DNA of 64,000 nt from a virus: the IMG/VR virus record IMGVR_UViG_3300044811_000010, positions 16,255-80,254 of that record, one strand, 5' to 3'. Within the stretch, counting starts at the first letter, position 1. Each line of letters begins with the position of its first letter. A program made the translations under genes and the position numbers. The notes below the pieces were generated by a model that saw only the letters and a program-made list of their open reading frames with translations, made no database searches and had not been told where the DNA came from. Shown here piece by piece: positions 41,628 to 61,956 of this stretch.

Positions 41628-43489
41628 GCTGCGCCCTCCTTGATCTCGTCCTTAGGAATCACGGTCTTGACGATGCCTTCCTTGAGCGTGTTGGTCGGCT
41701 CGACGTTGTTGGTCGACACGGTGTTGCGCGGGAGCGGGATGTAGATGCGGACCAGCTCCTGCTGGCCGAGCCGGTCGCAACGCGACTCCCACTGCTCGTT
41801 GGTCGCTGGCACCCAGGCCCGCGTGAGCTGGTACATCGAATGGCCGCTCGTGAGGGTGATGCCTTCCTTCGTGGCGTCGAGCGTGCCGACGATCACGTCC
41901 AGCTCGCCGCGCTGAAAGGCGTCCTCCATCTTCGTGCGGTCCTCCGGCGGCGTGTCCCCAGTGTACACGCCCACGTCGGCGTTGTACTTGGACCGCAGCC
42001 GAGCGGCGAGGATGTTGCAGGACTCCTTGAACTTGCACGCCACAACCCACTGAGTAGGCCGCGAGTCGATGAACTTCTGCTCGAAGTCATCCATCAGCGC
42101 CGAGTCGTCCTCACCGCCGAGGATCGCCGGGTTCTCAAGGATCTGCTGGCAGCGAATCATGCGGGCGGCGCCGTTGGGGATGTTGTAGAGCATCCCGACC
42201 GGGTCTACCGCCTGCTCGATCTGCAGCGCTGTGGTGTCTCCGGCCGCCGCGTCCTTCTTGACTTCGAGCCACATGACCTTCTCGGCCTCGTCGTAGAGCT
42301 TGCGCTGCTTGGGGTTCAAGTCGACTTCGTACCGAATCCGCTTGCGCCCCTTGAGGCCGAGGATCGCAGCGGTGCGCCGGATCAGCTTCCCACGCAGCAC
42401 GAACCGCAGCGCGTCCGGGTTCTTGACGCCAGTGACGACCTTGCGCTTGTACTGATCCTCCCAGTAGTCAACGTAGTCCTCGTAGAACGCCCAGTAGGCG
42501 ACGCGGGGGTGGCCTGCGGGGTTCTTGGCCGAGCGCGGGGTGGAGTTCCCGTACTCGTCCGGCCACAGCCAGCGGAGGATGGACCACAGCTCGTCGGGGG
42601 AGTTCATCAGCGGCGTGCCGGTGAGCCCGAGCATCATCTGCCCCTTGACGCGCCAGAGTCCCTGCGTCTGCTGAGACTTACGGTTCTTGGCGCGGTGGAC
42701 CTCGTCGGCGATGGTTGCGAGCCATTCAGTGTCCTCGAACAGCGGCTCCTTCAGCATCGTGACCGTCTTCCGGCCGCCGTTCTTGAGCAGTACCTTCTCC
42801 TTCTTGACGCGTAGCTGCTCCCAGTTGACGATGGTCCACGCCGATTCCTCGATGGCTGCTTCGAGCTGCTTGGACCGTGCCGCCGGCGACTTGGCGTCAA
42901 CGATCTGGTGTGGAGCGTCTTCAAGCCACCGGCTGATCTCGCGAGCCCAGCCGCCCAGCACCGAGTTCGGCGCAACGACCAGCTTCGGCCCGTCGATCTG
43001 TCCGTTGCGTAGCGCGAACTCTTCGACCGCGCTGATCGCCTCGAACGTCTTTCCGAGCCCCATGTCGTCGGCGAGGATAGCTCGCGTCGAGGCCGCCATT
43101 GCTGAGACTGCGGCTCGCTGGTAGTCCAGCAGCCCGTCGTACTTCTCGTCGTTGACGTACTCGGGCTGCCACGGCATGCGCTTAGTCGCCCACGGAACCA
43201 GCAGGTCTGCGGCGTCGTCGGGCAGCTCGGTCGTCAGCGACTCCTCCGCTCCGCCCTTGGCCTCCTTGATCCACTGGATGATCTCAGGGTCGCACTCCGG
43301 GCGCAGCGTCTTGAGTACGCGCTCTGCGTTCTGGACCGTCGCCGGGACGATCCACAGCTTCGTGTCCCAGTCGAACCGGCGTCCGGGGATGTCGCTGACC
43401 TTGTCCTTGGCATCCTGGAATTCCATGCCACGGCAGCCCGATAGGGCCAGTTCCAGCGAGTCTCCGTTTCGCGTCAGGACAGGCGGCAT
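41624..43489 (-). CDS. SNF2-family helicase with HARP-like N-terminus
   Basis: IPGRRFD...W, LADDMGLGKT, DEVH, LTGTP, EGITL, R..RLGQ. Confidence 0.9.
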   Translation of the reverse strand: MPPVLTRNGDSLELALSGCRGMEFQDAKDKVSDIPGRRFDWDTKLWIVPATVQNAERVLKTLRPECDPEIIQWIKEAKGGAEESLTTELPDDAADLLVPWATKRMPWQPEYVNDEKYDGLLDYQRAAVSAMAASTRAILADDMGLGKTFEAISAVEEFALRNGQIDGPKLVVAPNSVLGGWAREISRWLEDAPHQIVDAKSPAARSKQLEAAIEESAWTIVNWEQLRVKKEKVLLKNGGRKTVTMLKEPLFEDTEWLATIADEVHRAKNRKSQQTQGLWRVKGQMMLGLTGTPLMNSPDELWSILRWLWPDEYGNSTPRSAKNPAGHPRVAYWAFYEDYVDYWEDQYKRKVVTGVKNPDALRFVLRGKLIRRTAAILGLKGRKRIRYEVDLNPKQRKLYDEAEKVMWLEVKKDAAAGDTTALQIEQAVDPVGMLYNIPNGAARMIRCQQILENPAILGGEDDSALMDDFEQKFIDSRPTQWVVACKFKESCNILAARLRSKYNADVGVYTGDTPPEDRTKMEDAFQRGELDVIVGTLDATKEGITLTSGHSMYQLTRAWVPATNEQWESRCDRLGQQELVRIYIPLPRNTVSTNNVEPTNTLKEGIVKTVIPKDEIKEGAA

Positions 43490-43607
43490 CAGGAGCGCGT
43501 CGAGCCGCCGCCGTAGCGGCGTTCGTAGGCCGCCTTCTTAGCCAGCTCGTCAGCGAGGATCGTGACCTGCTTGATCAAGCTGATGATGGCGTGCTCTAGA
43601 GCCATGC

Positions 43608-43826
43608 TCATTCGACGCGCTCGGCTTCCATGGCAGAGATGTTCTGGGGGTTGACGTAGAGGATCTTCACGGGTAGTCCTTCGAGCTTGACGCGCTCTTC
43701 AGCGATAAGCGCGGGGATTCCGTACGTCTCCTCGTTGACGAGGCTGATGTAGTTGATCCCCGAAAACTCGATGGGCTCCCCTGTTTCGTCAGCGGCGGGA
43801 AAGACCCGTACGTTGATCGTGTTCAT
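43608..43826 (-). CDS. hypothetical protein
   Basis: AAGGAG RBS. Confidence 0.6.
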   Translation of the reverse strand: MNTINVRVFPAADETGEPIEFSGINYISLVNEETYGIPALIAEERVKLEGLPVKILYVNPQNISAMEAERVE

Positions 43827-43967
43827 GGGTAATGGTGCTCCTTTCGGGGCGAGTGATGTTGTAGATGGGCCTCCGGCTTACACGACGCCGCCACATAGGA
43901 CGCACGCCCCTCCATCCTCATCCAACCGGAGGCCCACCAAGAACGGTAGCAGACGATGCCGTCTGCG

Positions 43968-44297
43968 TCAAACCTTGGGAGGCTTGCGCGGGTTGAATCC
44001 TGCGGCCCTCGCGAGGACGCCAAGCCGCGTCCGGAGGTTCTTCACGTCCTGCTCGGCGGCCTTGAACTGCCGGCCCTGAGGGGTGCCCTCCCAGCCCGGC
44101 GCGTCCGCATCCTCAGCACGTAGTAGCTGCCGCTCCATCTCGGCGTTGCGGGCCATCACGTCGGCGCTTGCGAGCGAGTCCGTGAGCAGGTCCACCAGCG
44201 CCAGCGACTGCCTTGCGGCGCGCTCGGCGACTTCGAACGGGTCGCCGTCGAAGTCGCGAGGGTCGCTGATGGAGAAGTTCTTGATCCTTGGTCCCAT
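43968..44297 (-). CDS. hypothetical protein
   Basis: AGGAGG RBS before the ATG at 44297. Confidence 0.6.
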   Translation of the reverse strand: MGPRIKNFSISDPRDFDGDPFEVAERAARQSLALVDLLTDSLASADVMARNAEMERQLLRAEDADAPGWEGTPQGRQFKAAEQDVKNLRTRLGVLARAAGFNPRKPPKV

Positions 44298-44325
44298 TTC
44301 ACTGCCTCCTAAGTCCGTAGACTGA

Positions 44326-45780
44326 GTGTTGATGTCTGCGCCTGAAGCCAAGAAGAGGTCGTTGTTCCCATGGTTCTATGCGACGCGTGGGCTGGGTGTA
44401 GTGTTCTTGCTCTACGGGTTGCTTCATGACCACTCCGGAGATCGGGGCACCATCATCCTCACGGGCGCTGGCCTGATCGGAGTCGACAAGGTGGCTCGTT
44501 CAGAACCCGGAAAGTAAAGACATGGTCCCACAGGATTGCGAAGAAGTCAAGCGACGTGATGGTCACGCAGCATTGATCTCCTGGATTGAGTGCCATCCGC
44601 GCACGGGCTGGTACATCGCGGTCCTGACCACGCTGAACGTGGTCCTGAACCTTCTCGGCCTGTTCCACTGACACGATAGACTGGTACTGATGCCCCAATT
44701 GACCGAAGATCAGCTCGACTTCTTCTCCCAGCAGACGGAACGCGCGGCTCGTAAGGCGGTGCGGCGCTACCGTCGGAGCGCGGTTGTTGGCTTCGCTGTC
44801 TTGGCGCTCGGAATCGGGGCACAGCAGTACACGACGAACCACGATGCGAATAGCTCTAGGCAGGCAATCGTGGTCACGACGCGCGACGTTGCCACAGCTA
44901 GCTGCAACGGGCGCTTCCTCGACCGGCAGGTTCTTCGTGAAATCGTAGAGGCCCAGAGGCCGGTTATCGCCGGTTATGTCAAGGACGGCACTCTGACCTT
45001 GGGCCAAGGCACGCAGGCCATCAAGCAGCTCAACGAGACACTGACTCTCCTACGCCTCCCCGACTGCCGGCGCGCTGCAGAGATCATCACCGATGATCCG
45101 ACGCATGCTGCCCCTAACACGCCTCCGGCGCTGTACCCCGGCGCCCCCGCTGCGGGCGGCTTCACCTACAAGGCCATCGGATAGCTCATGCTGCTCGTTG
45201 CATACATCGCCATCATGGGCTCAGCGCTCACCCTCAGCGCGTCCGGCCTCTTCGTTCCGGCGCTCGTGCTTGGGATCGTGGGGTCGATGTTGGCGTACCG
45301 CTGGACCATCGTGGCGGCTGCACACCGGGTCAAGACGCAAGCATCCCGGTCGCGCTCTTGATCGACCATCTGCGCAGCATCCGATGGTGGGACGCCACGG
45401 TCTTCGTGATTCTAATTGCGGCGATCATCTTCGCCATCCACACCCAACAGTCAGTGACGCGGGTCGAGCGCCACATCACAACCATCACGAGGGCTGGCGC
45501 GCGTGGTCGTCCGGGTAAGTCTTGCGTGGTCATCGTGCGGCGGCCTGTGGCCGTGGGGCCGCTTCAGCGCCGCGTGCTTCCCAGCCACGCTAGAAGGTCA
45601 AGCGCGCTAGGCACAGCTCGCCGCCCTAGCGGCGCAAGTCCGGGGCGAACGAAGGGCCACGCTCGAACCAAGAGCACAGCGGGCAAGGCACGCAAGCGCG
45701 ACGTGACTCGCAAGCACGCTGCCAAGCACCACGGTCGGCATCTAGGCCACAAGAAGCATCACGGCCACAAGAAGCACTAG
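44326..45780 (+). CDS. five-gene + strand membrane-protein cluster (44326-44517, 44522-44671, 44690-45184, 45188-45361, 45358-45780)
   Basis: Each ORF has 1-2 TM segments; TAGACT -10 boxes at 44318 and 44677. Confidence 0.6.
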
Positions 45781-45787
45781 GCGAGAC

Positions 45788-45964
45788 TCAGCCCGCCACG
45801 ACGGCGATGGACAGGCCCAGTGTCGTAAACGACAGAAGCACGACGCAGATGATGTAGAACGTAGAGTTCCACGTCCGCGTGATCGGCTGGTCGGCGAACT
45901 CCCAGACGAACCCGATTACGTTCCAGACGATGATGACCCACGCCAGCCAATGAGCGGTGTTCAT
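45788..45964 (-). CDS. 2-TM membrane protein
   Basis: Read by hand; ATGA coupling. Confidence 0.5.
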   Translation of the reverse strand: MNTAHWLAWVIIVWNVIGFVWEFADQPITRTWNSTFYIICVVLLSFTTLGLSIAVVAG

Positions 45965-46530
45965 CCTGTCACCGCGCAGATGGCCGTGACCACGACGTTC
46001 GCCGGAGTGGTCGTGTCGGTGTTAGAGATACGCGCCGTCCATGAGTCAGTGCCGCCGGGACCTGACGCCTGAATAGCCGTCGCCGAGGCGGAAGACGCTC
46101 CACCGCCTAGGACGTGTTGCCCGGCATCGCACACGGCCGAGAGGGTAGCCACCTGCAGCGGCCCAATCGAGGCTGACGCCTGCGGATAGGTCACCTGCGT
46201 TACGCCCGGCGAGCCCTGTGGGCCAGCAGGTCCCTGCGCTCCGGGGTCGCCCTTCTCGCCATGAACGGTGATGTTGATGCCGCTCGCCGGGTCGCTCAAG
46301 ACCTCAGTGATAGCGTCGCGCAGATTCGTCTTCGTGATCGCATGTGCCGGCGGCCTGGCCGACGGCGCAAGGTCACGAACGCGCACCGAGCGGTCGTGAA
46401 TGGCGCGCGTGCCTACGGCGCCGGTCCTGATCTGGTTCGGGCCGACCTGAGTGGCCGCGTAGCCCACGCCGCCGCTCGCCAATACGAGCGCGAGGACGGA
46501 GAGGGCCGTGGACGGCGAGGGGAGCCTCAT
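45961..46530 (-). CDS. secreted collagen-repeat protein
   Basis: Signal SPSTALSVLALVLASGG.GYAA; Gxx repeats; C..G..VLGGG..W..AIC domain. Confidence 0.75.
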   Translation of the reverse strand: MRLPSPSTALSVLALVLASGGVGYAATQVGPNQIRTGAVGTRAIHDRSVRVRDLAPSARPPAHAITKTNLRDAITEVLSDPASGINITVHGEKGDPGAQGPAGPQGSPGVTQVTYPQASASIGPLQVATLSAVCDAGQHVLGGGASSASATAIQASGPGGTDSWTARISNTDTTTPANVVVTAICAVTG

Positions 46531-46973
46531 GCGACCGAAACCTCGCCCTTCATGCGGTCCACGCGATAGGCGCGCGGCTCGTCGCGGTCGGGGTCGTAGC
46601 CCGTGAACGTGACGTGGCCTGCGACCTCCTTGACCTCCGTGGGCTGCAGGGTGCGCGTCTCGATGACGGCGCCGTCGCCCTTGGCGTAGCGGAATGTCAC
46701 GGTCTTGCTGTGGACAGCCGCGAGGCGCAACAGCCCCTCGTTGAAGCTGATCTGCGAAGCCAGAGGAACTCCGTCGAGCTTGACGCTCTGGGGGTGCTCA
46801 GCAGCATCGCCCAAGAATTCGTTGCAGGCGCTGCGCAGCGCACGCACGCCGTCCGTCTGCGCTTCCTGGAACTGGAAGCTGGAAACGTCCCGGTCGCCAT
46901 TGAGGTCGAGGGAGCCTGTCGCCGCGTGAATCTGCAGAACGTCGCCGCAACAGTCTGTGATGTTTACGTGCAT
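46527..46973 (-). CDS. WYL-domain protein
   Basis: VTFRY......TRTLQP....F.GYD..RDEPRAYRVDRM. Confidence 0.85.
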   Translation of the reverse strand: MHVNITDCCGDVLQIHAATGSLDLNGDRDVSSFQFQEAQTDGVRALRSACNEFLGDAAEHPQSVKLDGVPLASQISFNEGLLRLAAVHSKTVTFRYAKGDGAVIETRTLQPTEVKEVAGHVTFTGYDPDRDEPRAYRVDRMKGEVSVA

Positions 46974-47009
46974 GGTTGACCTCCTAGGGTCGTTGGGATA
47001 GCTGAAAGT

Positions 47010-47261
47010 CTAGCAGTAGTTGGCTCGCCGTCGCGTCAACGCGGCCAGCTTCGGGCGGTGCTCGTGCTCGTGGATCGCCGCGCGGACGATCAGATCGCGC
47101 TCGTCCTTGGGGAGCAGCAGGTTGCAGACGATCAGAGCGTCGCTGGGAGCCTCGGGGTGGAACTGGTAATCGCTCCACCTAGGGTTGGTGGGGTAGCCGC
47201 CGTGGGATGGCGTCGAGAAGTAGCCCACGTCGTCCTCGTCCTCGTAGATCACAACTCCCAC
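47010..47261 (-). CDS. hypothetical protein
   Basis: Overlapping ORF between the WYL genes. Confidence 0.45.
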   Translation of the reverse strand: MGVVIYEDEDDVGYFSTPSHGGYPTNPRWSDYQFHPEAPSDALIVCNLLLPKDERDLIVRAAIHEHEHRPKLAALTRRRANYC

Positions 47262-47752
47262 AGCCTTTCGATGCGATCCATCCTGAACGTGCGGGGCTCG
47301 TCCTTCGCCACGTCGAGCGCGACGAGATAGTCGGTCTGGAATCCGAGGCCGGCGCGGCGCTGCTCGACCCTGATCGGGACGATGGCGCGCGAGGACTCGA
47401 TTCCGTTTTCGGTGCTATAGCCGAGCTGCATCTGGGGAACGTCATCGAGGCTCAGAACCTCGATAAGCAGCTCCTTGATGCGCTCCGTGCTGGCCGCTCC
47501 ACGCTTGATGCGGGCCGTGGACGGCGTGGAGTGGGGCTCGACTGAGTCGCGCTGGTGAGGGACCACAACGTCGGGGCCGATGATGAACGGCTGTGTCTTG
47601 TTGTAGTAGGCATTCATCGCCTCCATGACAGCGTTTCGCTCAGAGACTCCGCCTCCGCAGGCGCCGCTGGACAGCAGCTCGCTGGACTCGCAGACGAAGG
47701 CGACGGTTCCGCCACCCTCGCGCACGAACGTCTCGACAAGGAGCCGCGTCAT
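47249..47752 (-). CDS. WYL-domain protein
   Basis: LGYS.ENG.ESSRAIVP...YLVALD..KDEPRTFRMDRI. Confidence 0.85.
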   Translation of the reverse strand: MTRLLVETFVREGGGTVAFVCESSELLSSGACGGGVSERNAVMEAMNAYYNKTQPFIIGPDVVVPHQRDSVEPHSTPSTARIKRGAASTERIKELLIEVLSLDDVPQMQLGYSTENGIESSRAIVPIRVEQRRAGLGFQTDYLVALDVAKDEPRTFRMDRIERLWEL

Positions 47753-47915
47753 GACTTCGTCTGGTTGCTGCCGAGGAACTGCAGCACGGCGATCACGAAC
47801 AGCGCGATGAACCAGCCGGACCACGGATGCCCTAGATCGGGGTTGGACCCGCACAGCGCCCAGATGAGAAGAAAGAGAAGCATGCGACCTCCTTGGATAG
47901 CTCTATGTCTGAAAC

Positions 47916-47944
47916 AGACTACAGCGTCTGGGGCGGCTTGTCAA
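47916..47944 (-). promoter_or_regulatory. sigma-A-like promoter TTGACA-17-TAGTCT
   Basis: Consensus -35 and spacing. Confidence 0.8.
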
Positions 47945-48091
47945 CTGCGGGCGCCGGCAATTCCCAGGTGCGCTCGATCTGCTCCGCCTTGGCGATGAAC
48001 GTCGCCGCCTGCTGGATGTGATACTTCGCGTCGCGGCGGGCGTCGGCTGCACGCTTGGCTGCGGCCTGCTGGCGCTTGGGGTCGATGGGCG

Positions 48092-48313
48092 TCATGGCAG
48101 CTTCTCCCCGACCACGTCAACCGCCTCGATCCAGACGCGCGTGCCGTCTTGTCGCGGTGCCCCGTAGGTGATGATCGCGTCGGACAACAGGGCGCGGCAA
48201 TAGCTCTCGACGCGGCCTGTCTTCGTGTCCTCGACCCGCACGGGCTCGGCGTCTGCGCCCGTGGGCGTATGGTCGAGCAGGGCGCGATCCACGCTGACGA
48301 CATAGCGCCTCAT
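48092..48313 (-). CDS. hypothetical protein
   Basis: Coupled ORF ending G.RVWIE. Confidence 0.55.
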   Translation of the reverse strand: MRRYVVSVDRALLDHTPTGADAEPVRVEDTKTGRVESYCRALLSDAIITYGAPRQDGTRVWIEAVDVVGEKLP

Positions 48314-48813
48314 GCGCGTTGGCCGGGGAAGGTGTCGAGCAGCACGTCTCCGACTTCATCGAAGAACTCCACGTCGGCGGTGTGCATCAGGGCGTTCGCC
48401 GCCGCGAGGGCGCCGTTAGGGTTGCCTCCGGTGAGCGCCATCAGCACCAGCGCGGTGGCGTAGCTCTCAGCCGAGAACGTCTCGTCGCCCTCGTCCTCAG
48501 GGACGCCGTTCGCAGGGGTCCTGAGCGTCGCGTCGAAGACCTGCTCTGGCGTAAGGTCGATGGCCGCCTTGGCACCACCAACCGAATCAGCTTCGAGCGC
48601 ACGCGCGGCCTTGTGGACCAACGACAGGTCGGCGTGGCGGCCAATGAGAACGGGCTGCTGACCGTTGGCCTTGAACTGGTCCACAGTCGCCACCGAGCGC
48701 TGTAGCGTGGACCCCAGCTCGTCACCGAGAACTTCGCGGGCGCGCCGGATGCCGACGACGACCTGAACTCGGCGGTTCACGTCGCAATCGACCATGTGGA
48801 GCGTGTGGGTCAT
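48310..48813 (-). CDS. protein with a possible ribosomal bL12 C-terminal-like domain
   Basis: RRVQVVVGIR...LG.TL..S...VD....P..I......A..LE resembles KI.VIK.VR...GL.EAK.LV..P. Confidence 0.35.
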   Translation of the reverse strand: MTHTLHMVDCDVNRRVQVVVGIRRAREVLGDELGSTLQRSVATVDQFKANGQQPVLIGRHADLSLVHKAARALEADSVGGAKAAIDLTPEQVFDATLRTPANGVPEDEGDETFSAESYATALVLMALTGGNPNGALAAANALMHTADVEFFDEVGDVLLDTFPGQRA

Positions 48814-49188
48814 GCGTCCTCCTGTCCGGTTACGAAGCCAGCATTGCTCCACGCCGCGAGGTCGTCCTCGGTCAGCGCGTTCTGAGTCACGATAGCGGAT
48901 AGCTCCGCAAGTCGCAGCCGGATGCGCTCAACGGTGTCGATGCGCAGCACGACGTGCCGCGCGTGACGGTCGTTCTCCTTCGAGGCGATGTAGTCCTCCA
49001 GGTCGCCGGCGTGATGTGGGATGCCTCGGAACTCGTCCATCAGCGGTACTCCTTCCTCAGCTTGGCGCGCTCAGTCGGGCGCCGCTGCTTGGCGGTCTTG
49101 CGGACGACGCTGGGTCGCTCGGTGAGCACGGGCTTAGGGCCGCGCTTGGCGGATCGCGCCGGAGCCTCGTGGCGTCGGTGGGTGCGGC

Positions 49189-53605: not shown

Positions 53606-53648
53606 GCGGTGGACCTCCTTGGGATGCGGTGGACTGCTGTATGTCTAC

Positions 53649-53677: not shown

Positions 53678-53694
53678 GCCCTGGCTGCCGGCGG

Positions 53695-55108: not shown

Positions 55109-55449
55109 GAGCGGTTACCTCGCTGGTCGCGGGCGCGGCATGTCGGAGGAATCTCGATCAGCTTGCCGGTGGTGCCGATGCTGTCCTGCCGGTGACCAAG
55201 ACCGCGCCCATGCGGACCCTTGGCGACGAGCGTGCTCACCGTGCCGCGCGCCACGTCGACCCAACGCCCCGACGTGCTCGGGTAGTCGGTGGTCGGGTAG
55301 TCGGTGGTCGGGTCTGTGATCCAGACGTTGCCGTTGTCAGCGACCACGATGAACTGCTTGGCCGGGAGCTGGGGCGCAGGGGTCAGCGTGACGTTCTCGC
55401 CGTTGGCGAGGGCTGCGGCCTGCTCCTGCGAAATCTCGATTGTCGGCAT
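55105..55449 (-). CDS. hypothetical protein, paralog A
   Basis: Similar to 56985-57305; first gene after the promoter at 55483-55511. Confidence 0.7.
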   Translation of the reverse strand: MPTIEISQEQAAALANGENVTLTPAPQLPAKQFIVVADNGNVWITDPTTDYPTTDYPSTSGRWVDVARGTVSTLVAKGPHGRGLGHRQDSIGTTGKLIEIPPTCRARDQRGNRS

Positions 55450-55482
55450 TGAAACCTCCTAGGGAGTTGATCTGATACGGGT

Positions 55483-55511
55483 ATCTTACAGAGCGCGGGG
55501 CGGCTTGTCAA
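55483..55511 (-). promoter_or_regulatory. promoter TTGACA-17-TAAGAT
   Basis: Consensus. Confidence 0.8.
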
Positions 55512-55856
55512 GGTCCAGGCGCCGGCGAGTTGGGCACCGTTCCGTGTGCAGCTCGGCGCCGAACTTTTCGCGTCCGCAGGTACATCGCGCTGCCAGCCCC
55601 GCCCCGCGCCGCTTCGCGCCTCTCTCGACGCTGACCAGCCCGGACGTGGCGCCCCTGCCAGTAGCCCTCGATGTCGAAGTGCAGCGCGCAGATCATCGCC
55701 GCCAGCGAGCAGGCGAAGTCGAGCAGTCCAGCGCCGACCCATTCAAGCGGGGTCACGGCCGCATCGCCATACTGGCGCGAGCGCAGCGGCAGGCTTCATC
55801 GGCGCCACAACCGAGCGACCTGTAGAACCGGAACCAATCTCCGAAGACGAGCACGG

Positions 55857-56099
55857 TCATGCCGGCACCAAGGCAACCTGCCCGGATTCCTCGGTTTCGA
55901 GCTTCCAGCCGTCCGTTCTATCGGGGAGTTCCCGCAACGTCGGAATCTCAACCTCCCACACGTACCCGGTGCAGCCGTTCCCGGTTTGCTGAGCGGCGAG
56001 AGCAGCCGCCTCTGCCTGATTGAAGTAGACGACGCTAGGGTCGCTCACCGGCTCGGTGGGGTCGTAGTGGTAGTGGCGCACGACGATGTAGCCGATCAT
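55857..56099 (-). CDS. hypothetical protein
   Basis: Start reassigned to the ATG at 56099. Confidence 0.5.
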   Translation of the reverse strand: MIGYIVVRHYHYDPTEPVSDPSVVYFNQAEAAALAAQQTGNGCTGYVWEVEIPTLRELPDRTDGWKLETEESGQVALVPA

Positions 56100-56701
56100 G
56101 CTGTCACCAGCCCGGCCGTATACCCCGCCTTGCAGTACGCCTCGAAGTGCTCGTTCTCCCAGAGGCAGAATGTGATGTCGAGCGGGCCGGTGAAGTAGCG
56201 CGCAGCCTCCATGGCGATGGCCGCCGCGCCCGCGACCGGGTAGCCGAAAATGCCGCAGGAGATTGCCGGGACGGCGAGACGTGTCCAGCCACACTCGGCC
56301 GCAGCCATGAACGCCTCGTAGTGAGCTGAGTAGAGCAGGTCTGGCTCGCAGAACTGGCCGCCGCCCCAGACCGGGCCGACCGCGTGGATGACGCCCTTGA
56401 GTGGCAGCATCCCCGCCGACGTGACGTAGCAATCGCCCGTAGCGACGAGGGGAGCCCCGGAGTGATCCGCCTTCCAGTCCCCTACCTTGCGGCTCCACAG
56501 ATCGAGGGCGGCCCGCTTCTCGGCCTCGGTCATCGTCGTGCCCTCAGCGGTTCCGTCAGGCCAGGTTGCCGGCCACTGCAAGGCGGCGCTGTCGATCTTC
56601 GCCGCCAATCCTCCGCCGTGGCGAAGGTGGCTGTTCGCGGGGTTGACGATGGCGTCAGCCTCGACCGTGAGGATGTCCGTCTGCCGGATCTGGACGCTCA
56701 T
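56096..56701 (-). CDS. macrodomain (MacroD-like ADP-ribose hydrolase)
   Basis: DI...ADAIVNPAN..L.HGGGLA, VIHAVGP, PAISCGIFGYP. Confidence 0.92.
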   Translation of the reverse strand: MSVQIRQTDILTVEADAIVNPANSHLRHGGGLAAKIDSAALQWPATWPDGTAEGTTMTEAEKRAALDLWSRKVGDWKADHSGAPLVATGDCYVTSAGMLPLKGVIHAVGPVWGGGQFCEPDLLYSAHYEAFMAAAECGWTRLAVPAISCGIFGYPVAGAAAIAMEAARYFTGPLDITFCLWENEHFEAYCKAGYTAGLVTA

Positions 56702-56985
56702 GCGAGCCTCCCGGCGACACGCCATCCCGAGTCCACACGACGCTTGGTCCTGACTGTGCGGGTCACGGGCGGGGGAACGCGGACCTCCACGTCCTCGATG
56801 GCAACCTCGCCGTCGTGCCACTGGATCAGTAGACGGTACTGGCCCGCGTCGAGCTGCGCCGACTCGACAGCCTGCTCCACGAGTTCGGAGGTACCAGAAA
56901 TCTCCGCGCTGTTGAGCAGTTCGATGATCGGCTCGTGCCAGCCGCCCGCCTTGGGGGCGGCGCTGAGGTTGTAGACGCGGATCAT
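56698..56985 (-). CDS. hypothetical protein
   Basis: Coupled ORF. Confidence 0.55.
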   Translation of the reverse strand: MIRVYNLSAAPKAGGWHEPIIELLNSAEISGTSELVEQAVESAQLDAGQYRLLIQWHDGEVAIEDVEVRVPPPVTRTVRTKRRVDSGWRVAGRLA

Positions 56986-57305
56986 CAGGCGTCGCGTCCG
57001 GCGAGGGGGATTTCGGTGAAGGTCCCGCGTCCGGACAGCCAGCCCTCCTGAGTGTGGCCGAGCAGGCGTCTGTGCTGACCCCTAGCGATCAGCCGACACT
57101 CGCCGGTGACCGAGACAGTCTCGTCGAGCACGCCCGTCCTCGTGAGGACGGGCGGCGAGGGCGCCAGCACGTCGTAGACGTTGCCGGTCTTAGTGAGGAC
57201 CACGATGAAGCGCCGCTTGACTTGGGGCGGATCGGACTTGATCGTGATGTCTTCGCCGTTTGCGAGCTGGCAAGCCTGTACGGCGGTGATGGTGATGGAA
57301 GGCAT
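56985..57305 (-). CDS. hypothetical protein, paralog B
   Basis: Similar to 55105-55449; first gene after the promoter at 57336-57364. Confidence 0.7.
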   Translation of the reverse strand: MPSITITAVQACQLANGEDITIKSDPPQVKRRFIVVLTKTGNVYDVLAPSPPVLTRTGVLDETVSVTGECRLIARGQHRRLLGHTQEGWLSGRGTFTEIPLAGRDA

Positions 57306-57335
57306 GCGGAGTGTCCTTTCGTTCGGTATGGCTAC

Positions 57336-57364
57336 AAGCTAGCCTAGGGTTCCGGGGTTGTCAA
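57336..57364 (-). promoter_or_regulatory. promoter TTGACA-17-TAGCTT
   Basis: Consensus. Confidence 0.75.
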
Positions 57365-57841
57365 GGGCTGGGCGGCCTGGTGCCGGCAGCTCTCGGTGGT
57401 GATGGGGTAGTGCTCGATGCCGTCTGTCACCCAGTAGCAGCTCGCGCAGGGCTTCTCGCACGGATCAAGGCGGAACCGTGTCGCGTAACCGTAGCGATCT
57501 GGCGGGCGCAGTAGCGCGTCAGCGACCGCAGGCAGGCTGTCCATGGCGCTCGTGAAGACTTCGGTTGGCATCTTGTCGGAGGCGTGCTGCTCGTAGAGGT
57601 ACGTGAGAGCGGCCGTGAGCCCTGCTAGCAGGTCGGGAGGGGCGGGGACGGCCTCGGAGTAGGGTTCGGGCTTAGGCGCGCTTAGAGAGGCTGAGGGCGC
57701 CGGAGCCCAGAGGACTGACGAAGCTGCGGCGAGTGCGAGGCCCATGCCAATCGCCGTCCCGAACTCGGACAGGGATAGCTCGATGAGTACGAGTCCCGCG
57801 CCTGTCATCAGCAGCCGAACTACCATCCTGATCGTGTTCAC
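57344..57841 (-). CDS. membrane protein with C-terminal Cys cluster
   Basis: AAGGAGG RBS; two TM segments; CxxPCxxC. Confidence 0.6.
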   Translation of the reverse strand: MNTIRMVVRLLMTGAGLVLIELSLSEFGTAIGMGLALAAASSVLWAPAPSASLSAPKPEPYSEAVPAPPDLLAGLTAALTYLYEQHASDKMPTEVFTSAMDSLPAVADALLRPPDRYGYATRFRLDPCEKPCASCYWVTDGIEHYPITTESCRHQAAQPLTTPEP

Positions 57842-57879
57842 TAGGTGCCTCCTTTCAGCAGCCGAACATGCGTTCGTCT

Positions 57880-58245
57880 ATCGGTCTAATCTTCATACCT
57901 TCCAGCGGCCGAGATAGAGCATTGTCGGACACACCTGTCCCTCTCTAGAGAGGGACGACGGTGTACGTCCGAAATCCTCAACAAACACGGGCCATAAAGT
58001 TGGGACATTCGTACCACTTACATAGGCTTCGTACCACCTTAGGGGTACTTTCCTAAAGCCCAGCTAAAGATCTGGTATGAATCTGGTATGTAAGTCCCGT
58101 GCTTACTGGGTATCTCGGACATTCGTACCAGTCTAGGAAAGTTAGATAAACGTGACCGTTTTTCTGGCTCCGAAAACCTAATCCCCAGTAAGCACGGGAC
58201 TTGTGGCGCGTTGCCACTCAAATTTATGCCCGGAAGTGGTACGAC
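57880..58245. repeat. AT-enriched intergenic locus with iterons, a 20-bp palindrome and a 19-bp inverted repeat (putative ori)
   Basis: GTCCCTCTCTAGAGAGGGAC 57937-57956; AAGTCCCGTGCTTACTGGG 58092-58110 / 58184-58202; repeated TCRTACC. Confidence 0.7.
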
Positions 58246-58247
58246 CG

Positions 58248-58508
58248 TTAGTCAGTCGCCCCGAGGGCTCTCGTGAGCGCCCTCGACCCCTTCATCGCGG
58301 CTGCGTTGAGCACCTGCGCGACGCCATTGGCCGACGCTGCGGTGTCCCGATGTGCGACCTGCCGGCCGCTCACATTGTCGATCACGTCGTGGCCGTCGAT
58401 GGTGGCGAGGATGCCGAACTTCTGCGGACTCGGCCGCGCGGTCAGCTTGGCGACCTCACGGTCGATGATGCGGTCGCGGGCGTGGTTGGTCTGCGCTGCG
58501 TAGTGCAT
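58248..58508 (-). CDS. hypothetical early protein
   Basis: AGGAGG RBS. Confidence 0.6.
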   Translation of the reverse strand: MHYAAQTNHARDRIIDREVAKLTARPSPQKFGILATIDGHDVIDNVSGRQVAHRDTAASANGVAQVLNAAAMKGSRALTRALGATD

Positions 58509-58634
58509 AGTAGTCCTCCTGTGTTGAGGGATTAGATAGCTCCTGCGCCTTGCGGTAGCCGTCTGCGTGCCCGAGAAGGTACGCGGCCAGTAGCAGGATC
58601 ATGAGGATGGTTGCTGCGAGGGCTTCGGAATCGG

Positions 58635-59045
58635 TCATGCGTCCTCCCACCTTCCCTGAGCGTCGTTGTAGAGGTAGCAGCCGATGTGCTTGGTCTTGTG
58701 GTCGTATTGCGCGGCGAGCCCGTCGATGGCCTCCTTCGTGCGCTTCAGTGTCGCGCCTGAGTCGATCAGGTCGTCCACGAAGACCCAGCGGTGGCCCAGC
58801 GTCCCCTCAGCCTGACGGAAGGAGTGCGTTCCGTCCCCCGGCTTGCGGACGATCATCCAGTTGGTCTTCAGCGACGCGGCGAGCCGAGGCACGATGATCC
58901 CGCCTGACAGCCCCGTGCCTACGAGAGTGTCGTAGTCCCGACCAGCGAGGAACAGTTTGGCCTGAGCAACGACTGCGCGCCACGGCCCGAAAGCGTGTCT
59001 CATGTAGCTGGTGTGGAGGCGTAGTAGCCCATCATCGCCGGTCAT
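58635..59045 (-). CDS. type I phosphoribosyltransferase-fold protein
   Basis: G.GLSG, IVRK, VFVDDLIDSGAT PRPP-binding loop. Confidence 0.85.
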   Translation of the reverse strand: MTGDDGLLRLHTSYMRHAFGPWRAVVAQAKLFLAGRDYDTLVGTGLSGGIIVPRLAASLKTNWMIVRKPGDGTHSFRQAEGTLGHRWVFVDDLIDSGATLKRTKEAIDGLAAQYDHKTKHIGCYLYNDAQGRWEDA

Positions 59046-59166
59046 TCAGGGACCAGCGCGTTCGGGTACTCGCGGAGGGCGGCCGCGATGGAGGGGAACC
59101 AGATGCTCTCCTGCTCATCGTTGAACACTCGCACGCCGTTGGGACACCTGATGATGACCGTCTCGC

Positions 59167-59379
59167 TCACGCGATCACCGCGTTGCTGCCGGCAGCTTGG
59201 ATTGCGGCGGCCTTCGAGCCGACGCCCGTGAAGATGTCGATGAGTCGTCCGTCCTTGACGGCGGCCCAGCCGCCGCTGTTCGTGCGCCGAATGCCGGTGT
59301 GAGTCGTAGTCGCGAGGACTGCGAGCTGCTCGTCAGCGGATTCGTCACGGATGATCTTCGGACCCAAGGTGGTCGTCAT
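59167..59379 (-). CDS. hypothetical early protein
   Basis: AGGAG RBS overlapping the AGCTATCC motif. Confidence 0.6.
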   Translation of the reverse strand: MTTTLGPKIIRDESADEQLAVLATTTHTGIRRTNSGGWAAVKDGRLIDIFTGVGSKAAAIQAAGSNAVIA

Positions 59380-59494
59380 GGATAGCTCCTATCTTGTAGC
59401 TTATGATCCGAGGCTGGGCCGGACACTGGCTTTCGGCCGGGCCGAAATGGCCGCCCTAATTGCGCTCGTCCGGCTGCTCAGCCTCGTACTGTAT

Positions 59495-59523
59495 ACCTTA
59501 TGCGACGTGGGGCGTCTTGTCAA
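59495..59523 (-). promoter_or_regulatory. promoter TTGACA-17-TAAGGT
   Basis: Consensus. Confidence 0.8.
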
Positions 59524-60018
59524 GGGAGAGCGCCGGCAGCGACTCCCGCTTGAACCAGACCAACACGTCTCGGCGGTCGTGAAGGCAGAGCAGCAGCGCC
59601 GCCGCGCCCAGCAGCTTGCGGTGCCGATTCCGAGCGACGGCTAGTAGTACGGCGCCGGTCGCCCCATGGTGGAGCCGCTGCCCCGCGACCCAAACGCGCG
59701 GCCCATGCGGATAGCTCCGGACAGTGACCAGCCGAGTCATCGACGCCCGGCCCTATCGGCGCGGCATGCTGCGCAGAAACATGGCCCGGTGCCAGCGTTG
59801 CGAGTGCATGCGCCCTTCATCCCGGCGGGTGGGTCGAACGTGCCGTCAGGGTGAACCACCAGCACGGGGCGGTCGGGCGCCCTCACAATCAGTACATCGC
59901 TAGCCGCCTCCGCTGAGGCTGCTACTGCCGCTCGGCGCGCAGTCGTCATGTGCTGAGCTTCGCTCAGAGCATTGAGCGGATAGCTGCCATCGTGGTTGAG
60001 CGGGTAGACGCGGAACAT
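59498..60018 (-). CDS. two small early ORFs (59498-59740, 59737-60018)
   Basis: ATGA coupling. Confidence 0.55.
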
Positions 60019-60158
60019 AGGTTAGAGCCTACGGTTCGACCGCGCACGCTGGCGCGCGTGGTGTTCAGTGTAATCCCAGCCGCCCTTAGGCGCAAGGTGG
60101 GAGGCGATGAACGCCGGCACCAGGATTCCGACTGCCACGCCGATGGTGACCAGCGCGA

Positions 60159-60713
60159 TCATGCGCCCCACTGGTCCGCCATCGCAGCAGCGATTCCGGG
60201 GAACGTCTTGCTGCGCTCCTTCCAGCGGTCAGGTCCGGGCGGCAGCTTCCAGACGCGCGGCTCGCGCCCCTCGACAATGTCGGTAGGCACCAGCTTGGGA
60301 AGGTTCTGTAGCCAGAGACAGGTACGCTTGACTTCGCCGTGCCCGAACTGCCACGGCTGGATGGTCTGATCTGGCTTGCGGATAGCTGTGCTGATGATGC
60401 TCACCGGATTCTCGATGGCGATGCGCTCGACGGGCGCGGCCATGATTCTGCGGACGAAGTCCAGCGCGGCTTGCTGGCGACCGTCGGCGCGCTTCTCGGG
60501 GAACCACCGAGCGCCGCTGACCGCAAGGTGCGTGCATGGCGGGAAGGCGATCAGTAGGTCGAACTTGGATAGCTCCAAGTCGAACATATCGCCCTCGTGG
60601 TGCGGGCCGGGCGAATCGGTCGGCAGGAAGTCACACGACATAGCGTCGTGGCCTCGCGCGAGGAACGCATCGCGGACGGCGCCGCTGTACTCGCATGCGA
60701 CTAGCACCCTCAT
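60159..60713 (-). CDS. DNA cytosine methyltransferase-like protein (MRVLVACE family)
   Basis: VLVACEYSG.VRDAF, SCD, AFPPCTHL, IENPV, QPWQFG, RSKTF.GIA.AMA.QW. Confidence 0.8.
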   Translation of the reverse strand: MRVLVACEYSGAVRDAFLARGHDAMSCDFLPTDSPGPHHEGDMFDLELSKFDLLIAFPPCTHLAVSGARWFPEKRADGRQQAALDFVRRIMAAPVERIAIENPVSIISTAIRKPDQTIQPWQFGHGEVKRTCLWLQNLPKLVPTDIVEGREPRVWKLPPGPDRWKERSKTFPGIAAAMADQWGA

Positions 60714-61913
60714 CGCTGAGCCTCGCATGGGGCGGGGACAGGCTCGATGCGGCCCGCACCGTACAAGCTGCGGCCGAGGCTGTAGTGCGCGGTCAGGGTG
60801 CAGGTAGACCAGCCCTTGCGGCGGGTACGGTCGCATCCGACGACAGCGCAGCGAGTAGCGGCGTGCTTCCAATGAGGCGCAGGGCTTGCCGGCACGTTCG
60901 GCCAATCGGTGTGGTCGTGGATGCTCACTTGACGGTCACCGTACCCTCAGCGGTAACCGTCAGGGTGCCGTAGAACTTGCGGCTGGTGTAGGGGTCAGGC
61001 CCGACGAAGTGATAGCTCCCGACCGGGGCATCGGACAGCGGGCCATCGTACTCGTTGCCGAATAGGGAGGTCGCCTCGATCCCGATAGGTGCGCTGATGC
61101 CGTGCGCTGCTACGGAATCCTTGATCGCCTTCTTAGAGGCGGGGCGGCTGTAGTTCAGGTAAAGCCCTTGCATGATTATCTCCTAGGTGTTTGTGTGCTG
61201 CGGGATTGGTACATGATACTGCGGGATAGCCGGTAGTCAAGCGGTCAGTCTGATGAATCCCTGAACGCAAGCATCGGCAAGGTGTAGAGCCCGACCGCGC
61301 GCGTGGTGTAGATCCGAAGTGGGCCGAGCCGCGCTGGCATACCGGGATCGTTGGCGGCCCATAGGTCGCCATAGCCGGGCTGCCCGGTCACGCTGCCTTC
61401 GCGAATGTAGGCCACGGTTGAGCCTTCCGCGTCGAGCAGCGCATGCACGGCCCAAGATGCCGGCACGGATAGCTCCGCCTTTTCATCGTTTCCTAGCAGT
61501 CGCGCGCTGGCGAACATTACTTCGCCTCCCTGATTGCACGCTTGGCCGCGCGCTGACGCTTGCGGTCGATGGTCTTGGACTTCGCCGCGTGCGTTCGCTT
61601 GCGGTCGCGCATGGGCCGGTCTTCGTTCGTGCGTTCGGTGCGTCTCATTGCTGGATAGCTCGCTTTCGGTGTAGCAGGGATTTGTGTTAGCTCAGCCGCC
61701 GCGCGGCTTGCCGGAAAGGATGCGCGACTGACGGTGGATGGTGGCGCCGACGTTTTCGACGGCGTCCCATGCATCGCGCGTTGCCTGATTGGCACACTCC
61801 GGGTCAGCGGCCGTTGCGCGGTCAGCCGCCGCTAGCAGGGCTTCGATTCGCGCGGCGGCTTCGCGAATCTTCGCAACGCGCTTGGCGGTCGGCATGGGTG
61901 CTCGGTTGCTCAT
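60710..61913 (-). CDS. cluster of small early ORFs (60710-60928, 60925-61173, 61245-61517, 61517-61648, 61692-61913)
   Basis: Coupled or RBS-led ORFs; TTGACT-16-TATCAT promoter at 61213-61240. Confidence 0.55.
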
Positions 61914-61956
61914 TTGGGATAGCTCGCTTTCGGGATAGCTGACTGTGTGGACGGTA

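Follow-up and report, generated by a model that had tools for sequence, protein, structure and literature searches.

What does a short, exact and strongly polar sequence do in the early arm of an uncultured phage? The question is raised by the octamer GGATAGCT in a 64,000-nucleotide stretch of viral DNA (the window), corresponding to positions 16255-80254 in a virus record 80,254 bp long. An initial annotation placed 16 copies on the + strand, from 43075 to 61933, and a lone reverse copy at 36050; each of these positions is exact. Three near-matches listed with them are likewise real (58534, AGATAGCT; 61010, TGATAGCT; 61224, GGATAGCC). The GC content had been put at ~67% and measures ~64% in the window. 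The low chance expectation held up: 100 dinucleotide shuffles yielded 0.96 copies on average for both strands, with a maximum of 4, and none reached 17. The octamer is the top over-represented 8-mer of the entire record (order-3 Markov expectation, 0.74) and is absent from both strands of the 16 kb outside the window. This pattern is not the product of chance. The single reverse copy is at chance level, one being predicted.

Because all copies on the + strand fall in a leftward arm extending from the GP88 gene to the SNF2 helicase gene, the sense form is (G)AGCTATCC, an exact signal of 8-9 bases. The gene content of this arm suggests that it is expressed early (Table 1). The replication genes farther left (41.6 to 27 kb) contain no sense copies.

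Table 1. Genes of the leftward arm, octamer copies, near-matches and associated signals in the window.
Feature	Position	Strand	Context
Leftward early arm, carrying all sense copies	43075..62718	-	Putatively early, from gene content
GP88-family gene	61957-62718	-	First gene of early arm
Small ORFs, DNA methyltransferase, PRTase-like, Macro, ligase	60159-60713 (DNA methyltransferase)	-	After GP88
rIIA-like, rIIB-like, C5-MTase-like, two WYL proteins	51563-53605 (rIIA-like); 50301-51503 (rIIB-like)	-	Follow the preceding group
SNF2 helicase	41624-43426	-	5′ part closes octamer-bearing arm
AGCTATCC, arm's first copy	61933..61940	-	In 44-nt gap after GP88; ATG 61913 19 nt downstream
GAGCTATCC	61917..61924	-	ATG 61913 3 nt downstream (73-aa ORF 61692-61913)
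GAGCTATCC	61653..61660	-	ATG 61648 4 nt downstream (43-aa ORF)
GGAGCTATCC	61467..61474	-	In-frame GTG 61466 immediately after (73-aa ORF 61245-61466)
Octamer in DNA methyltransferase gene	60567..60574	-	Frame GAG-CTA-TCC (E-L-S)
Octamer in DNA methyltransferase gene	60380..60387	-	Frame xxA-GCT-ATC-C
Octamer in ORF 59737-60018	59978..59985	-	33 nt past ATG 60018, 28 nt before in-frame ATG 59949
Octamer in 80-aa ORF 59498-59740	59709..59716	-	24 nt past ATG 59740
AGGAGCTATCC-ATG	59380..59387	-	Motif forms Shine-Dalgarno GGAG and entire spacer of 70-aa ORF 59167-59379
Octamer in ORF 57344-57841	57773..57780	-	In-frame ATG 57745 27 nt downstream
Octamer in rIIA-like gene, 3′ part	51763..51770	-	rIIB-like start 259 nt downstream
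Octamer in 76-aa ORF 48810-49040	48897..48904	-	Next start 83 nt on
Octamer in 5′ UTR	47895..47902	-	TTGACA-17-TAGTCT (47944-47916), 13 nt, GAGCTATCC, AAGGAGG, ATG 47883
Octamer in 5′ UTR	46996..47003	-	TAGACT hexamer 3 nt before; ATG 46973 22 nt after (WYL-domain protein 46527-46973)
Octamer at convergent junction	45179..45186	-	Overlaps TAG stop of + strand gene 44690-45184
Octamer in SNF2 helicase gene, last copy	43075..43082	-	Directly upstream of conserved DDMGLGKT box
Near-match AGCTATCT, 5′ UTR	58534..58541	-	ATG 58508 26 nt downstream; AGGAGG follows
Sigma-70-like promoter TTGACT-16-TATCAT	61213..61240	-	Near-match GGCTATCC (61224-61231) in spacer
Single reverse copy, GGATAGCT on - strand	36050..36057	-	In DUF4406-like gene, replication module

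Codon usage does not generate the copies found inside genes. In 2000 codon-preserving (synonymous) shuffles of the 40 early-arm genes, the 8 sense copies located within genes were not reproduced (mean 0.88, maximum 4), and the replication and late gene sets, included in the same analysis, harbor no sense copies inside genes. Rare codons occur within the motif, CTA accounting for 4.6% of Leu codons and TAT for 10% of Tyr codons. Three reading frames had been described: our gene calls support two in the window phage, xAG-CTA-TCC and xxA-GCT-ATC-C, and find the third, AGC-TAT-CC, in relatives only. The core of the initial interpretation, a strand-oriented signal at the nucleotide level that amino-acid selection does not explain, is upheld by these shuffles, by the count of reverse copies and by the relatives.

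The identical octamer, with identical polarity and in the same arm, is present in no fewer than 12 related records from IMG/VR or metagenomes, which bears out the conservation expected of a true signal. Sense to antisense copies number 7:0 in L087, 18:0 in G001, 18:2 in G002, 7:1 in G003, 21:0 in G004, 11:0 in G005, 22:0 in G008, 4:0 in both G411 and G425, 18:0 in G413, 15:0 in G419 and 14:1 in G429. Octamer-bearing records and the window have in common portal, capsid (40-80% identity), terminase, PolA, primase, DnaB and SNF2. The cluster always covers the stretch between the arm's head and, approximately, the SNF2 gene; the gene content of the arm is otherwise poorly conserved, the octamer being constant. 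Sharing is found at individual sites as well: the 3′ part of rIIA holds the octamer in G002 and G005 too, and a 14-mer spanning site 59380 is also found in L087. Within the window, sites 61917 and 61653 have 17 nt in common (CCGAAAGCGAGCTATCC). Reverse copies are not as common as forward ones, seven early arms (139 kb) containing 106 sense and 0 antisense octamers. One-mismatch variants, including G-U-compatible ones, show no enrichment in these arms (25 sense vs 21 antisense). Exact conservation, lack of an excess of decayed copies and the presence of rare-codon copies inside conserved genes point to direct purifying selection on the sequence.

The octamer is associated with translation starts. 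An ORF-opening ATG lies 0-4 nt downstream from 20 of 89 sites (22%, as opposed to 3.2% in the control; p about 8e-12) and within 40 nt of 45 (51% vs 23%; p about 2e-8); about half of the copies are away from any start. Approximately 15% of sites are found 1-15 nt past a TANNNT hexamer, at variable spacing, that is, in 5′ UTRs. Site 61467 has another possible start, an ATG upstream at 61517. At the same place, two octamer-less relatives have polar, RBS-linked 5′-UTR cassettes of other kinds. Among them are T-loop hairpins whose stems show compensatory changes, a feature that is meaningful only at the RNA level. Placement on the coding strand only, in early genes of the window phage and its relatives and often at gene starts, indicates that the octamer is a real, conserved signal, not a chance occurrence, and probably one of gene expression.

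In our best reading, (G)AGCTATCC is a start-associated, class-specific element, and a sequence-specific factor recognizes its sense orientation. A link to expression through sense-orientation reading is probable; that the reading occurs at the RNA level is a more tentative proposal. The element would be a cis-acting tag on the immediate-early genes of high-GC siphoviruses from soil that form an uncultured family, and a single, highly specific trans-acting factor would read it in the sense orientation only. Roughly half of the copies lie in translation-initiation regions, the remainder inside early genes. Where the start codon follows within 0-4 nt, GAG would also serve as the Shine-Dalgarno, with CTATCC forming the spacer; other copies in initiation regions sit in a short 5′ UTR, 10-40 nt upstream from the start. 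In the mechanism that we prefer, a protein would recognize the tag on early mRNA, either as a translational operator or as a target for nuclease cleavage, much as T4 RegA/RegB do, and the whole early class would be switched jointly, most plausibly off, once the replication genes come on. In T4, the RegB signal is GGAG in the Shine-Dalgarno of early genes and RegA binds translational operators of early mRNAs; these signals are 4 nt long or degenerate and have known protein readers. By analogy, the octamer would mark the translation-initiation regions of early mRNAs across the whole class, with additional sites in genes, and the likeness may extend to post-transcriptional shut-off of the early class. 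It differs in that an exact 9-mer is involved, and a homolog of RegA or RegB was not recognized.

The lack of enrichment of one-mismatch variants, together with the failure to find a complementary RNA encoded elsewhere in the genome, suggests that the reader is a protein rather than an RNA. Against this reading, no early-arm protein family was found that is common to all motif-bearing genomes yet missing from motif-less ones, and among the small early ORFs Pfam and PHROGs named neither RNA-binding proteins nor nucleases. Judging by its genes, the phage looks lytic (rIIA/B, NAMPT, NUDIX, tRNA set); integrase, NusG, sigma factor and phage RNA polymerase genes were not detected.

Several explanations do without a reader of early mRNA. 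The initial annotation had entertained a Chi-like site and a KOPS-like translocase cue. In such a case the phage would have taken over a signal of the host's DNA machinery, be it a Chi-like site that tames RecBCD/AddAB/AdnAB at an end that enters or arises by rolling circle, or a translocase cue of the KOPS/SRS type. Like E. coli Chi (GCTGGTGG) and KOPS/SRS, the octamer is 8 nt long, exact, strictly polar and intolerant of mismatches, and in this record the 5′-GGATAGCT-3′ strand has its 3′ end at the contig end close by, oriented as Chi would require. However, Chi and KOPS abound in the host chromosome, where they are skewed and show no relation to gene starts, whereas the octamer tracks start codons and 5′ UTRs, is replaced in relatives by RBS-linked cassettes, and reaches Chi-like abundance in none of 401 Actinomycetota genomes from an even sample (10-60 copies in most and 136 in the densest, of 3.6 Mb; at most about 1 per 26 kb, compared to 1 per 1.2 kb in the phage arm). 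For these reasons it is probably not a Chi-like DNA-repair site, and the host-signal idea as a whole is very improbable. Moreover, contig ends need not be virion ends: the L087 contig crosses the "ends" of this record, the clusters wrap around contig ends in G002, G003 and G005 and are mid-contig in the 140-kb relatives G004 and G008, and the other end lacks copies in the opposite orientation. An RNA polymerase in a form specific to the phage, with a new sigma-like factor or as a modified host enzyme, might use the octamer as a promoter or initiation element and make early or middle mRNAs that lack a leader or have a short one. Such an element could be exact, polar, class-specific and located just 5′ of genes, at times within the preceding gene, as T7-type promoters are; a purine follows the motif in 70% of sites. 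This is unlikely given that conservation is limited to 9 bp with no -35 or upstream partner, that an ATG at 0 nt is the wrong geometry for a sigma-70 -10 box, that the +8 preference varies among lineages and that copies occur deep in long genes (SNF2, rIIA, methyltransferase), besides the failure to find polymerase and sigma factor genes. Strand-specific nicks occur in the virion DNA of T5, phiKMV-like phages and Pseudomonas phage tf, and cutting by an exact-sequence phage nickase would fit a mismatch-intolerant consensus present on one strand a dozen or more times per genome; nick sites confined to a single gene class and linked to start codons would be unexpected, no nickase gene was recognized, and we give this idea very little credence. 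Least credible is a passive junction sequence that has no reader and spreads with shuffled early-gene cassettes through recombination microhomology, a role proposed for the PeSL cassettes of T4-type phages. The constancy of the motif amid hypervariable gene content and its patchy presence on the capsid tree are in its favor, but all 8 of 8 positions are exact across phages at 40% capsid identity, decayed one-mismatch copies are not in excess, and rare codons build the copies inside conserved genes.

An asymmetric DNA operator or roadblock, the "stoperator-like" site first proposed, deserves more weight, although we consider it doubtful. As a roadblock, a phage DNA-binding protein sitting as a monomer on the 9-bp site would halt RNA polymerase one-way and silence the used early arm. 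Stoperators of Cluster A mycobacteriophages, the sites of L5 gp71, are 13-bp asymmetric sequences present in both arms of temperate phages; they serve the immunity repressor and include the early-promoter operator. The octamer resembles them in being asymmetric, multi-copy and oriented with transcription, and Cluster A phages, like the window phage, have rightward structural genes and a leftward arm opening with a GP88-family gene. Several copies lie 1-14 nt past -10-like hexamers, and the arm encodes two HTH-type or WYL-domain regulators directly downstream from motif-bearing 5′ regions. The near-match at 61224 occupies an operator-like position in a promoter spacer, and the copy at 45179 retains the arm's orientation although it overlaps the stop of a gene on the other strand (a real one, with a homolog in G419), where a sense transcript is not assured; both observations also speak against RNA-level reading. 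Unlike stoperators, however, the octamer is confined to one temporal class, with no site upstream of GP88 at the arm's head; a roadblock would have no need of so tight a coupling to ATG (0-4 nt); homologs of the WYL proteins are present in motif-less relatives too; and the lytic-looking phage lacks a detectable integrase. A protein site of the stoperator type is conceivable, but neither an integrase nor a repressor-type lifestyle nor an arm-head site was found. Between a reader of RNA and a DNA roadblock, we slightly favor the former. Predicted accessibility of the motif in RNA is no different from that of composition-matched 8-mers (p = 0.15), which counts against the RNA-level reading; the hairpin elements in the same 5′ UTRs of octamer-less relatives lend it support by analogy.

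As an expression-linked element, the octamer can be compared to the SAS of Cluster K mycobacteriophages, a 13-bp sequence (GGGATAGGAGCCC) that is nearly always start-proximal, with 6/125 copies inside ORFs (Pope et al. 2011, PMC3203893; PMC11373665; PMC12699233). PMC3203893 sets SAS against the L5 stoperators, for which it gives size and transcriptional role. SAS and octamer are both short and asymmetric, with about 10-20 mostly exact copies per genome, all in a single orientation and only in the non-structural early arm. Both lie a few nt from ATG, overlap the Shine-Dalgarno, and are kept across sub-lineages ahead of unrelated genes; neither shows notable density in host genomes or has a known reader. 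The octamer differs in sequence, in length (9 vs 13 nt), in including only GAG of the Shine-Dalgarno core, and in its many in-gene copies built of rare codons. A start is found at 0-4 nt for about 22% of its copies and no farther than 40 nt for about half; the half lying far from starts, whereas nearly all SAS lie near them, is a further point against RNA-level reading. The phages differ as well, those studied here being lytic-looking and uncultured, with <30% capsid identity to any isolate. Finally, in G002 and G005 an inverted repeat and a -10-like box are found upstream of the octamer, an arrangement that recalls the ESAS of Cluster K.

The structural genes of this virus lie on the + strand and point rightwards, and a long leftward arm occupies the - strand with a GP88-family gene in first position (codon-model gene calls combined with family searches; see the table). 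From its gene content, we infer that this arm represents the "early" class. Every + strand copy of the octamer GGATAGCT falls between GP88 and the first third of the SNF2 helicase gene; since all of them are thus within the leftward GP88-SNF2 arm, the sense-strand form of the motif is AGCTATCC. The sixteen + strand copies reported in the initial annotation are all exact, a single - strand copy is present at position 36050, and the three near-matches named alongside were confirmed in the sequence. Dinucleotide-preserving shuffles predict 0.96 copies for the two strands combined (at most 4), and none of 100 shuffles reaches 17. The octamer is the top over-represented 8-mer of the whole 80,254-bp genome (order-3 Markov expectation, 0.74), and the 16 kb of the record lying outside the window (bases 16255-80254 of the record) contain no copy on either strand. 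A soil-metagenome DNA run is the probable origin of the record. The GC content, initially put at ~67%, measures about 64%.

Coordinates of the features discussed in the text (window positions unless marked "genome" or assigned to a relative)
Feature	Position	Strand	Remarks
GP88-family gene	61957-62718	-	head of leftward arm
Arm genes after GP88		-	many small ORFs, DNA methyltransferase, PRTase-like, Macro, ligase, rIIA-like, rIIB-like, two WYL-domain proteins
SNF2 helicase gene	41624-43426	-	far end of motif-bearing arm
Genes beyond SNF2			replication genes (AEP primase, DnaB-like helicase, dNMP kinase, PolA) and terminase
Best sigma-70-like promoter of dense region	61213-61240	-	TTGACT-16-TATCAT; spacer holds near-match GGCTATCC (61224)
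WYL gene	47249-47752	-	second gene past the 47895 site
WYL gene	46527-46973	-	directly downstream of motif-bearing 5′ UTR (46996)
Opposite-strand gene island	44522-45184	+	within leftward arm
Interval about 600 nt long after the island	45187-45787		no convincing ORF
NAMPT gene	genome 4409-5812		in L219 (genome 3200-9582), outside window
NUDIX protein gene	genome 5815-6885		in L219
HD-domain CCA-adding enzyme gene	genome 8032-9582		in L219
Hairpin cassettes of relative G414	L314-L318, about 84.3-89.5 kb		
Hairpin cassettes of relative G423	L319-L321, 41.9-44.0 kb		
Inverted repeat preceding TAGCNT -10-like box, relative G002	L213, about 14250-14830		
Inverted repeat preceding TAGCNT -10-like box, relative G005	L215, about 8070-8630		

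Amino-acid selection, already discounted in the initial annotation, does not explain the motif. When synonymous codons were permuted within each of the 40 early-arm genes, sense copies inside genes averaged 0.88 (maximum 4 in 2000 shuffles) against 8 observed, and the intragenic motif is built from rare codons (CTA accounts for 4.6% of Leu codons, and 10% of Tyr codons are TAT). The same count gave no sense copies in the replication and late gene sets. Six to eight of the 16 window copies lie in genes, the five clear cases being two in the methyltransferase gene and one each in rIIA, SNF2 and an ORF at 48810-49040. About 10 sit close to a start or within a 5′ UTR; for some, the assignment hinges on the choice of start codon. 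At 45179, the copy shares bases with the stop codon of a real gene on the opposite strand. The + strand island at this place includes a 164-aa gene with a homolog in the same relative position and orientation in the relative G419.

The signal is short and remarkably strict. Across 122 sites, the flanks are informative at three positions only: -1 is G in 83%, A is avoided at -2 and, in a lineage-dependent manner, A is favoured and T avoided at +8. Nothing resembling a -35 box or any other partner element accompanies these sites. The early arms of seven genomes (139 kb) contain 106 exact sense copies and no antisense copy, which bears out the strand orientation originally proposed. In the same 139 kb, all 24 one-mismatch variants pooled amount to 25 sense and 21 antisense occurrences, that is, to background, implying that recognition is essentially all-or-none. 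Changes compatible with G-U pairing are likewise not tolerated. No conserved fold surrounds the motif, its predicted RNA accessibility does not differ from that of controls, and a literature search with the motif sequence returned primers and unrelated matches only.

Neither DNA nor capsid protein comparison reveals a close relative among GenBank phages (capsid identity to cultured phages is at most 29%). Relatives were found by scanning IMG/VR for two 9-mers spaced 160-190 nt apart and by a capsid-based scan; a rIIA-based scan of IMG/VR found none, and matches from a GP88-based scan were mostly distant low-GC phages whose top k-mers were ordinary promoters, RBSs and tRNA T-arms. The relatives share with the window the portal, capsid (40-80% identity), tail, terminase, PolA, primase, DnaB and SNF2 genes, indicating that the records form one family. 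Counted over whole records (major strand : minor strand), GGATAGCT occurs 18:0 in G001, 18:2 in G002, 7:1 in G003, 21:0 in G004, 11:0 in G005, 22:0 in G008, 18:0 in G413, 15:0 in G419, 14:1 in G429, 4:0 in G411 and 4:0 in G425/G426; the control, the octamer read backwards, occurs 0-2 times per strand. In every motif-bearing record, the early-arm genes are encoded on the major strand, and the cluster is densest at the head of that arm and extends to about the SNF2 gene. Conservation with the same polarity and location thus holds across these records. The early genes themselves are poorly conserved, unlike the motif, and at some orthologous sites of G002 and G005 the motif is fully conserved although the flanks are only about 75% identical. 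The related metagenome contig L087, whose GP88 is 68% identical, carries seven sense copies, all in the last 1.35 kb and the first one 12 nt before GP88, with no antisense copy and none in the 10 kb upstream. The closest GP88 relatives (70-80% identity) stood outside the octamer comparison.

A link with translation starts is apparent. An ORF-opening ATG follows within 0-4 nt at 20 of 89 sites (control, 3.2%; p about 8e-12) and within 40 nt at 45, 25 of them beyond the 0-4 nt class (control, 23%; p about 2e-8). Where the ATG lies 0-4 nt away, the GAG of the motif, often as GGAG, takes the Shine-Dalgarno position and CTATCC forms the spacer; of the start-proximal copies, only about half form GGAG. 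An example is AGGAGCTATCC-ATG at 59380, which recurs identically in L087, and G004 has many copies of this class. In a second class, the motif lies within a short 5′ UTR and is followed by a canonical AGGAGG. The 47895 copy is located 13 nt past a good promoter, TTGACA-17-TAGTCT. Within 1-15 nt upstream of the motif, TANNNT hexamers show about four-fold enrichment, at variable distance, and no fixed spacing separates the motif from -10-like hexamers. WYL homologs, encoded here next to or near two of the motif-bearing leaders, also occur in relatives without the motif.

The octamer is patchily distributed on the capsid tree, and lineages lacking it carry other polar 5′-UTR elements in the same genomic position, some of them interpretable only as RNA. 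G414, the capsid sister of G003, has 0-1 octamer copies and an alternative cassette present 13:0, which reads on the coding strand as a 10-bp hairpin with a TTCGATC T-loop, about 20 nt, AAAGGGTGA and ATG; stems differ between copies by compensatory changes. In G423, eight near-identical 75-nt cassettes each combine a 13-bp stem, capped by a TTCGATT loop, with another small hairpin, a AAAGGGAA RBS and the start codon. These T-loop minihelices could serve as tRNA-style punctuation of mRNAs; the family also encodes a CCA-adding enzyme. The early arm of the present phage has no T-loop hairpins. Together, the patchiness of the octamer and the elements of the sister lineages fit an exchange of early modules along with their signals.

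This kind of signal is already known. Start-associated sequences (SAS) of Cluster K mycobacteriophages have the consensus GGGATAGGAGCCC with an AGGAG Shine-Dalgarno core, lie virtually all 3-9 bp upstream of a start codon, and have had no known reader since their report in 2011 (PMC3203893). Like SAS, the octamer is a short, asymmetric, mostly exact repeat (16 copies here and 7-22 in most relatives, compared with about 10-20 SAS per genome); it likewise keeps a single orientation, running with the genes, stays within the non-structural arm, is associated with starts and is conserved ahead of genes that are unrelated to each other. It differs in being only partially start-proximal (the 0-4 nt and 40 nt fractions are 20/89 and 45/89) and in that the motif, GAGCTATCC, lacks the full AGGAG core. 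In G002 and G005, several motif copies are preceded, about 25-35 nt upstream, by an inverted repeat, GTGTGAC-N4-6-GTCACAC; together with the -10-like box that follows it, this recalls the promoter/inverted-repeat units (ESAS) of Cluster K. The motif sequence and the uncultured phage family are new, and the intragenic share and the exactness across deep divergence are unusual.

Stoperators of Cluster A phages occupy both arms, with an operator at the early promoter, in temperate phages that have an immunity repressor and an integrase. As in that system, orientation follows the direction of transcription. Unlike stoperators, the present sites are confined to the GP88-SNF2 interval with none at the arm head (upstream of GP88, this phage has neither an exact nor a one-mismatch site). 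Searches of the genome for NusG, sigma-70 region 2 and tyrosine integrase (PF00589) gave no match, again unlike the stoperator phages as regards integrase, and the large ORFs carry other annotations. The rIIA/B, NAMPT, NUDIX and CCA-adding enzyme genes and a large tRNA set suggest a lytic phage.

On these comparative grounds, (G)AGCTATCC can be read as a SAS-like class tag of immediate-early genes, presumably read in its sense form by a highly specific protein, because it is exact, asymmetric, sense-only, restricted to one gene class, start-associated and placed in front of unrelated genes. Tentatively, the reader would act on mRNA, the motif serving as a translational operator or nuclease target in the manner of RegA or RegB; half of the copies, however, lie away from starts. 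The stoperator-like action suggested in the initial annotation survives as a rival, in the form of a DNA roadblock, and the copy at 45179 and the promoter-spacer near-match at 61224 do have a DNA-level flavour. We consider it somewhat less likely and lean slightly towards mRNA because of the tie to initiation regions, the RNA-type elements of sister lineages, the lack of an arm-head site and a gene content that looks lytic. The presence or absence of the motif is tracked by no protein family, and no reader was found. A bolder variant, which we regard as rather improbable, makes the motif an exact 9-nt sense-strand "early-class barcode" whose mismatch-intolerant, enzyme-like reader would inactivate or re-program, in one stroke, all immediate-early messages of an entire uncultured phage family, sister lineages punctuating theirs with tRNA-like minihelices. 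Such a reader might be a sequence-specific endoribonuclease or a factor reading the non-template strand in the transcription bubble, and the minihelices might be handled by the phage's own CCA-adding enzyme.

The initial annotation was right in proposing a strand-oriented signal; its Chi- or KOPS-like version, a host DNA signal, now appears very improbable. The strong tie of the sites to starts and 5′ UTRs speaks against positions set by DNA ends or replication, and sister lineages swap the octamer for replacement cassettes. In the 140-kb G004 and G008, moreover, the cluster occupies the middle of the contig, and in G002, G003 and G005 it wraps around contig ends. Because of this, and because L087 is contiguous across the ends of this record (CheckV completeness, 66%) and the "terminal repeat" of G419 is an 86-bp assembly overlap, contig ends are not equated with virion ends. 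Chi-like abundance was not seen in any of 401 evenly sampled Actinomycetota genomes, a sample that may lack the true host: the densest had 136 copies in 3.6 Mb (its control, 89) and most had 10-60, compared with one octamer per 1.2 kb in the phage arm. Sixteen unpublished genomes are among the 401 and carry part of this negative result (G129, G010, G180, G380, G226, G057, G401, G237, G027, G325, G155, G077, G261, G332, G407 and G097). A phage-specific promoter has scarcely better prospects. Sigma-70 promoters have -35 and -10 hexamers 16-18 bp apart and start transcription about 7 nt after the -10; here a partner element is missing, an ATG at 0 nt breaks the geometry, the promoter scan does not exceed shuffles and no sigma gene was found. 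T7-like promoters comprise 17-23 conserved bp and come with a phage RNA polymerase gene; only 9 positions are conserved here, and the annotated large genes include no RNA polymerase-like ORF. Nick sites in virion DNA, as in the localized single-strand interruptions at a consensus in T5, phiKMV and tf, have a very low probability, as does a passive recombination junction.

Further candidates were tried and rejected. No complementary phage RNA is present, even with G-U pairs allowed, apart from single reverse copies within genes at the level of chance. Base-pairing to the 16S 3′ tail (GAG..AUCCA versus the complement GAGGUGAUCCA) is contradicted by the lack of enrichment of wobble-compatible variants, the lineage-specific +8 A and late genes without the motif; the UGG of the 16S target would fall in helix 45. 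GGAUAGCUC resembles tRNA positions 5-13, with no conserved upstream partner or fold. The TATCCA resemblance to a DnaA box fails at the downstream bases, and AGCT is not avoided, contrary to a link with AluI-type methylation or restriction.

Few genome-wide regulatory signals are known in actinobacteriophages, and start-associated and stoperator-type repeats belong to them. The present motif is exact at eight positions (nine with the flanking G) across uncultured soil phages with capsids only 40% identical. With >100 natural sites, natural "knock-out" lineages bearing other cassettes and no tolerated mismatches, the family offers a clean comparative system, which could help to find the reader and to decide between RNA and DNA action of such signals. 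In practice, the octamer marks the early module and its orientation in metagenomic contigs of this family.

The NAMPT, NUDIX and CCA-adding enzyme genes lie amid about 34 tRNA genes; with the Macro and PRTase-like genes of the early arm, they look like a NAD-salvage/counter-defence and tRNA-repair kit. Other strand-biased 8-mers on the + strand of the whole genome, CCTAGGGT (7:0) and GGGTCGCT (18:3), are scattered across both arms (e.g., genome 30030, 39361, 55541, 63237, 63432, 73597 and 80165). TTAA is nearly missing from the whole genome (1 copy versus 13.5 expected) and CTAG and AATT are depleted, which may reflect restriction avoidance or a compositional effect.
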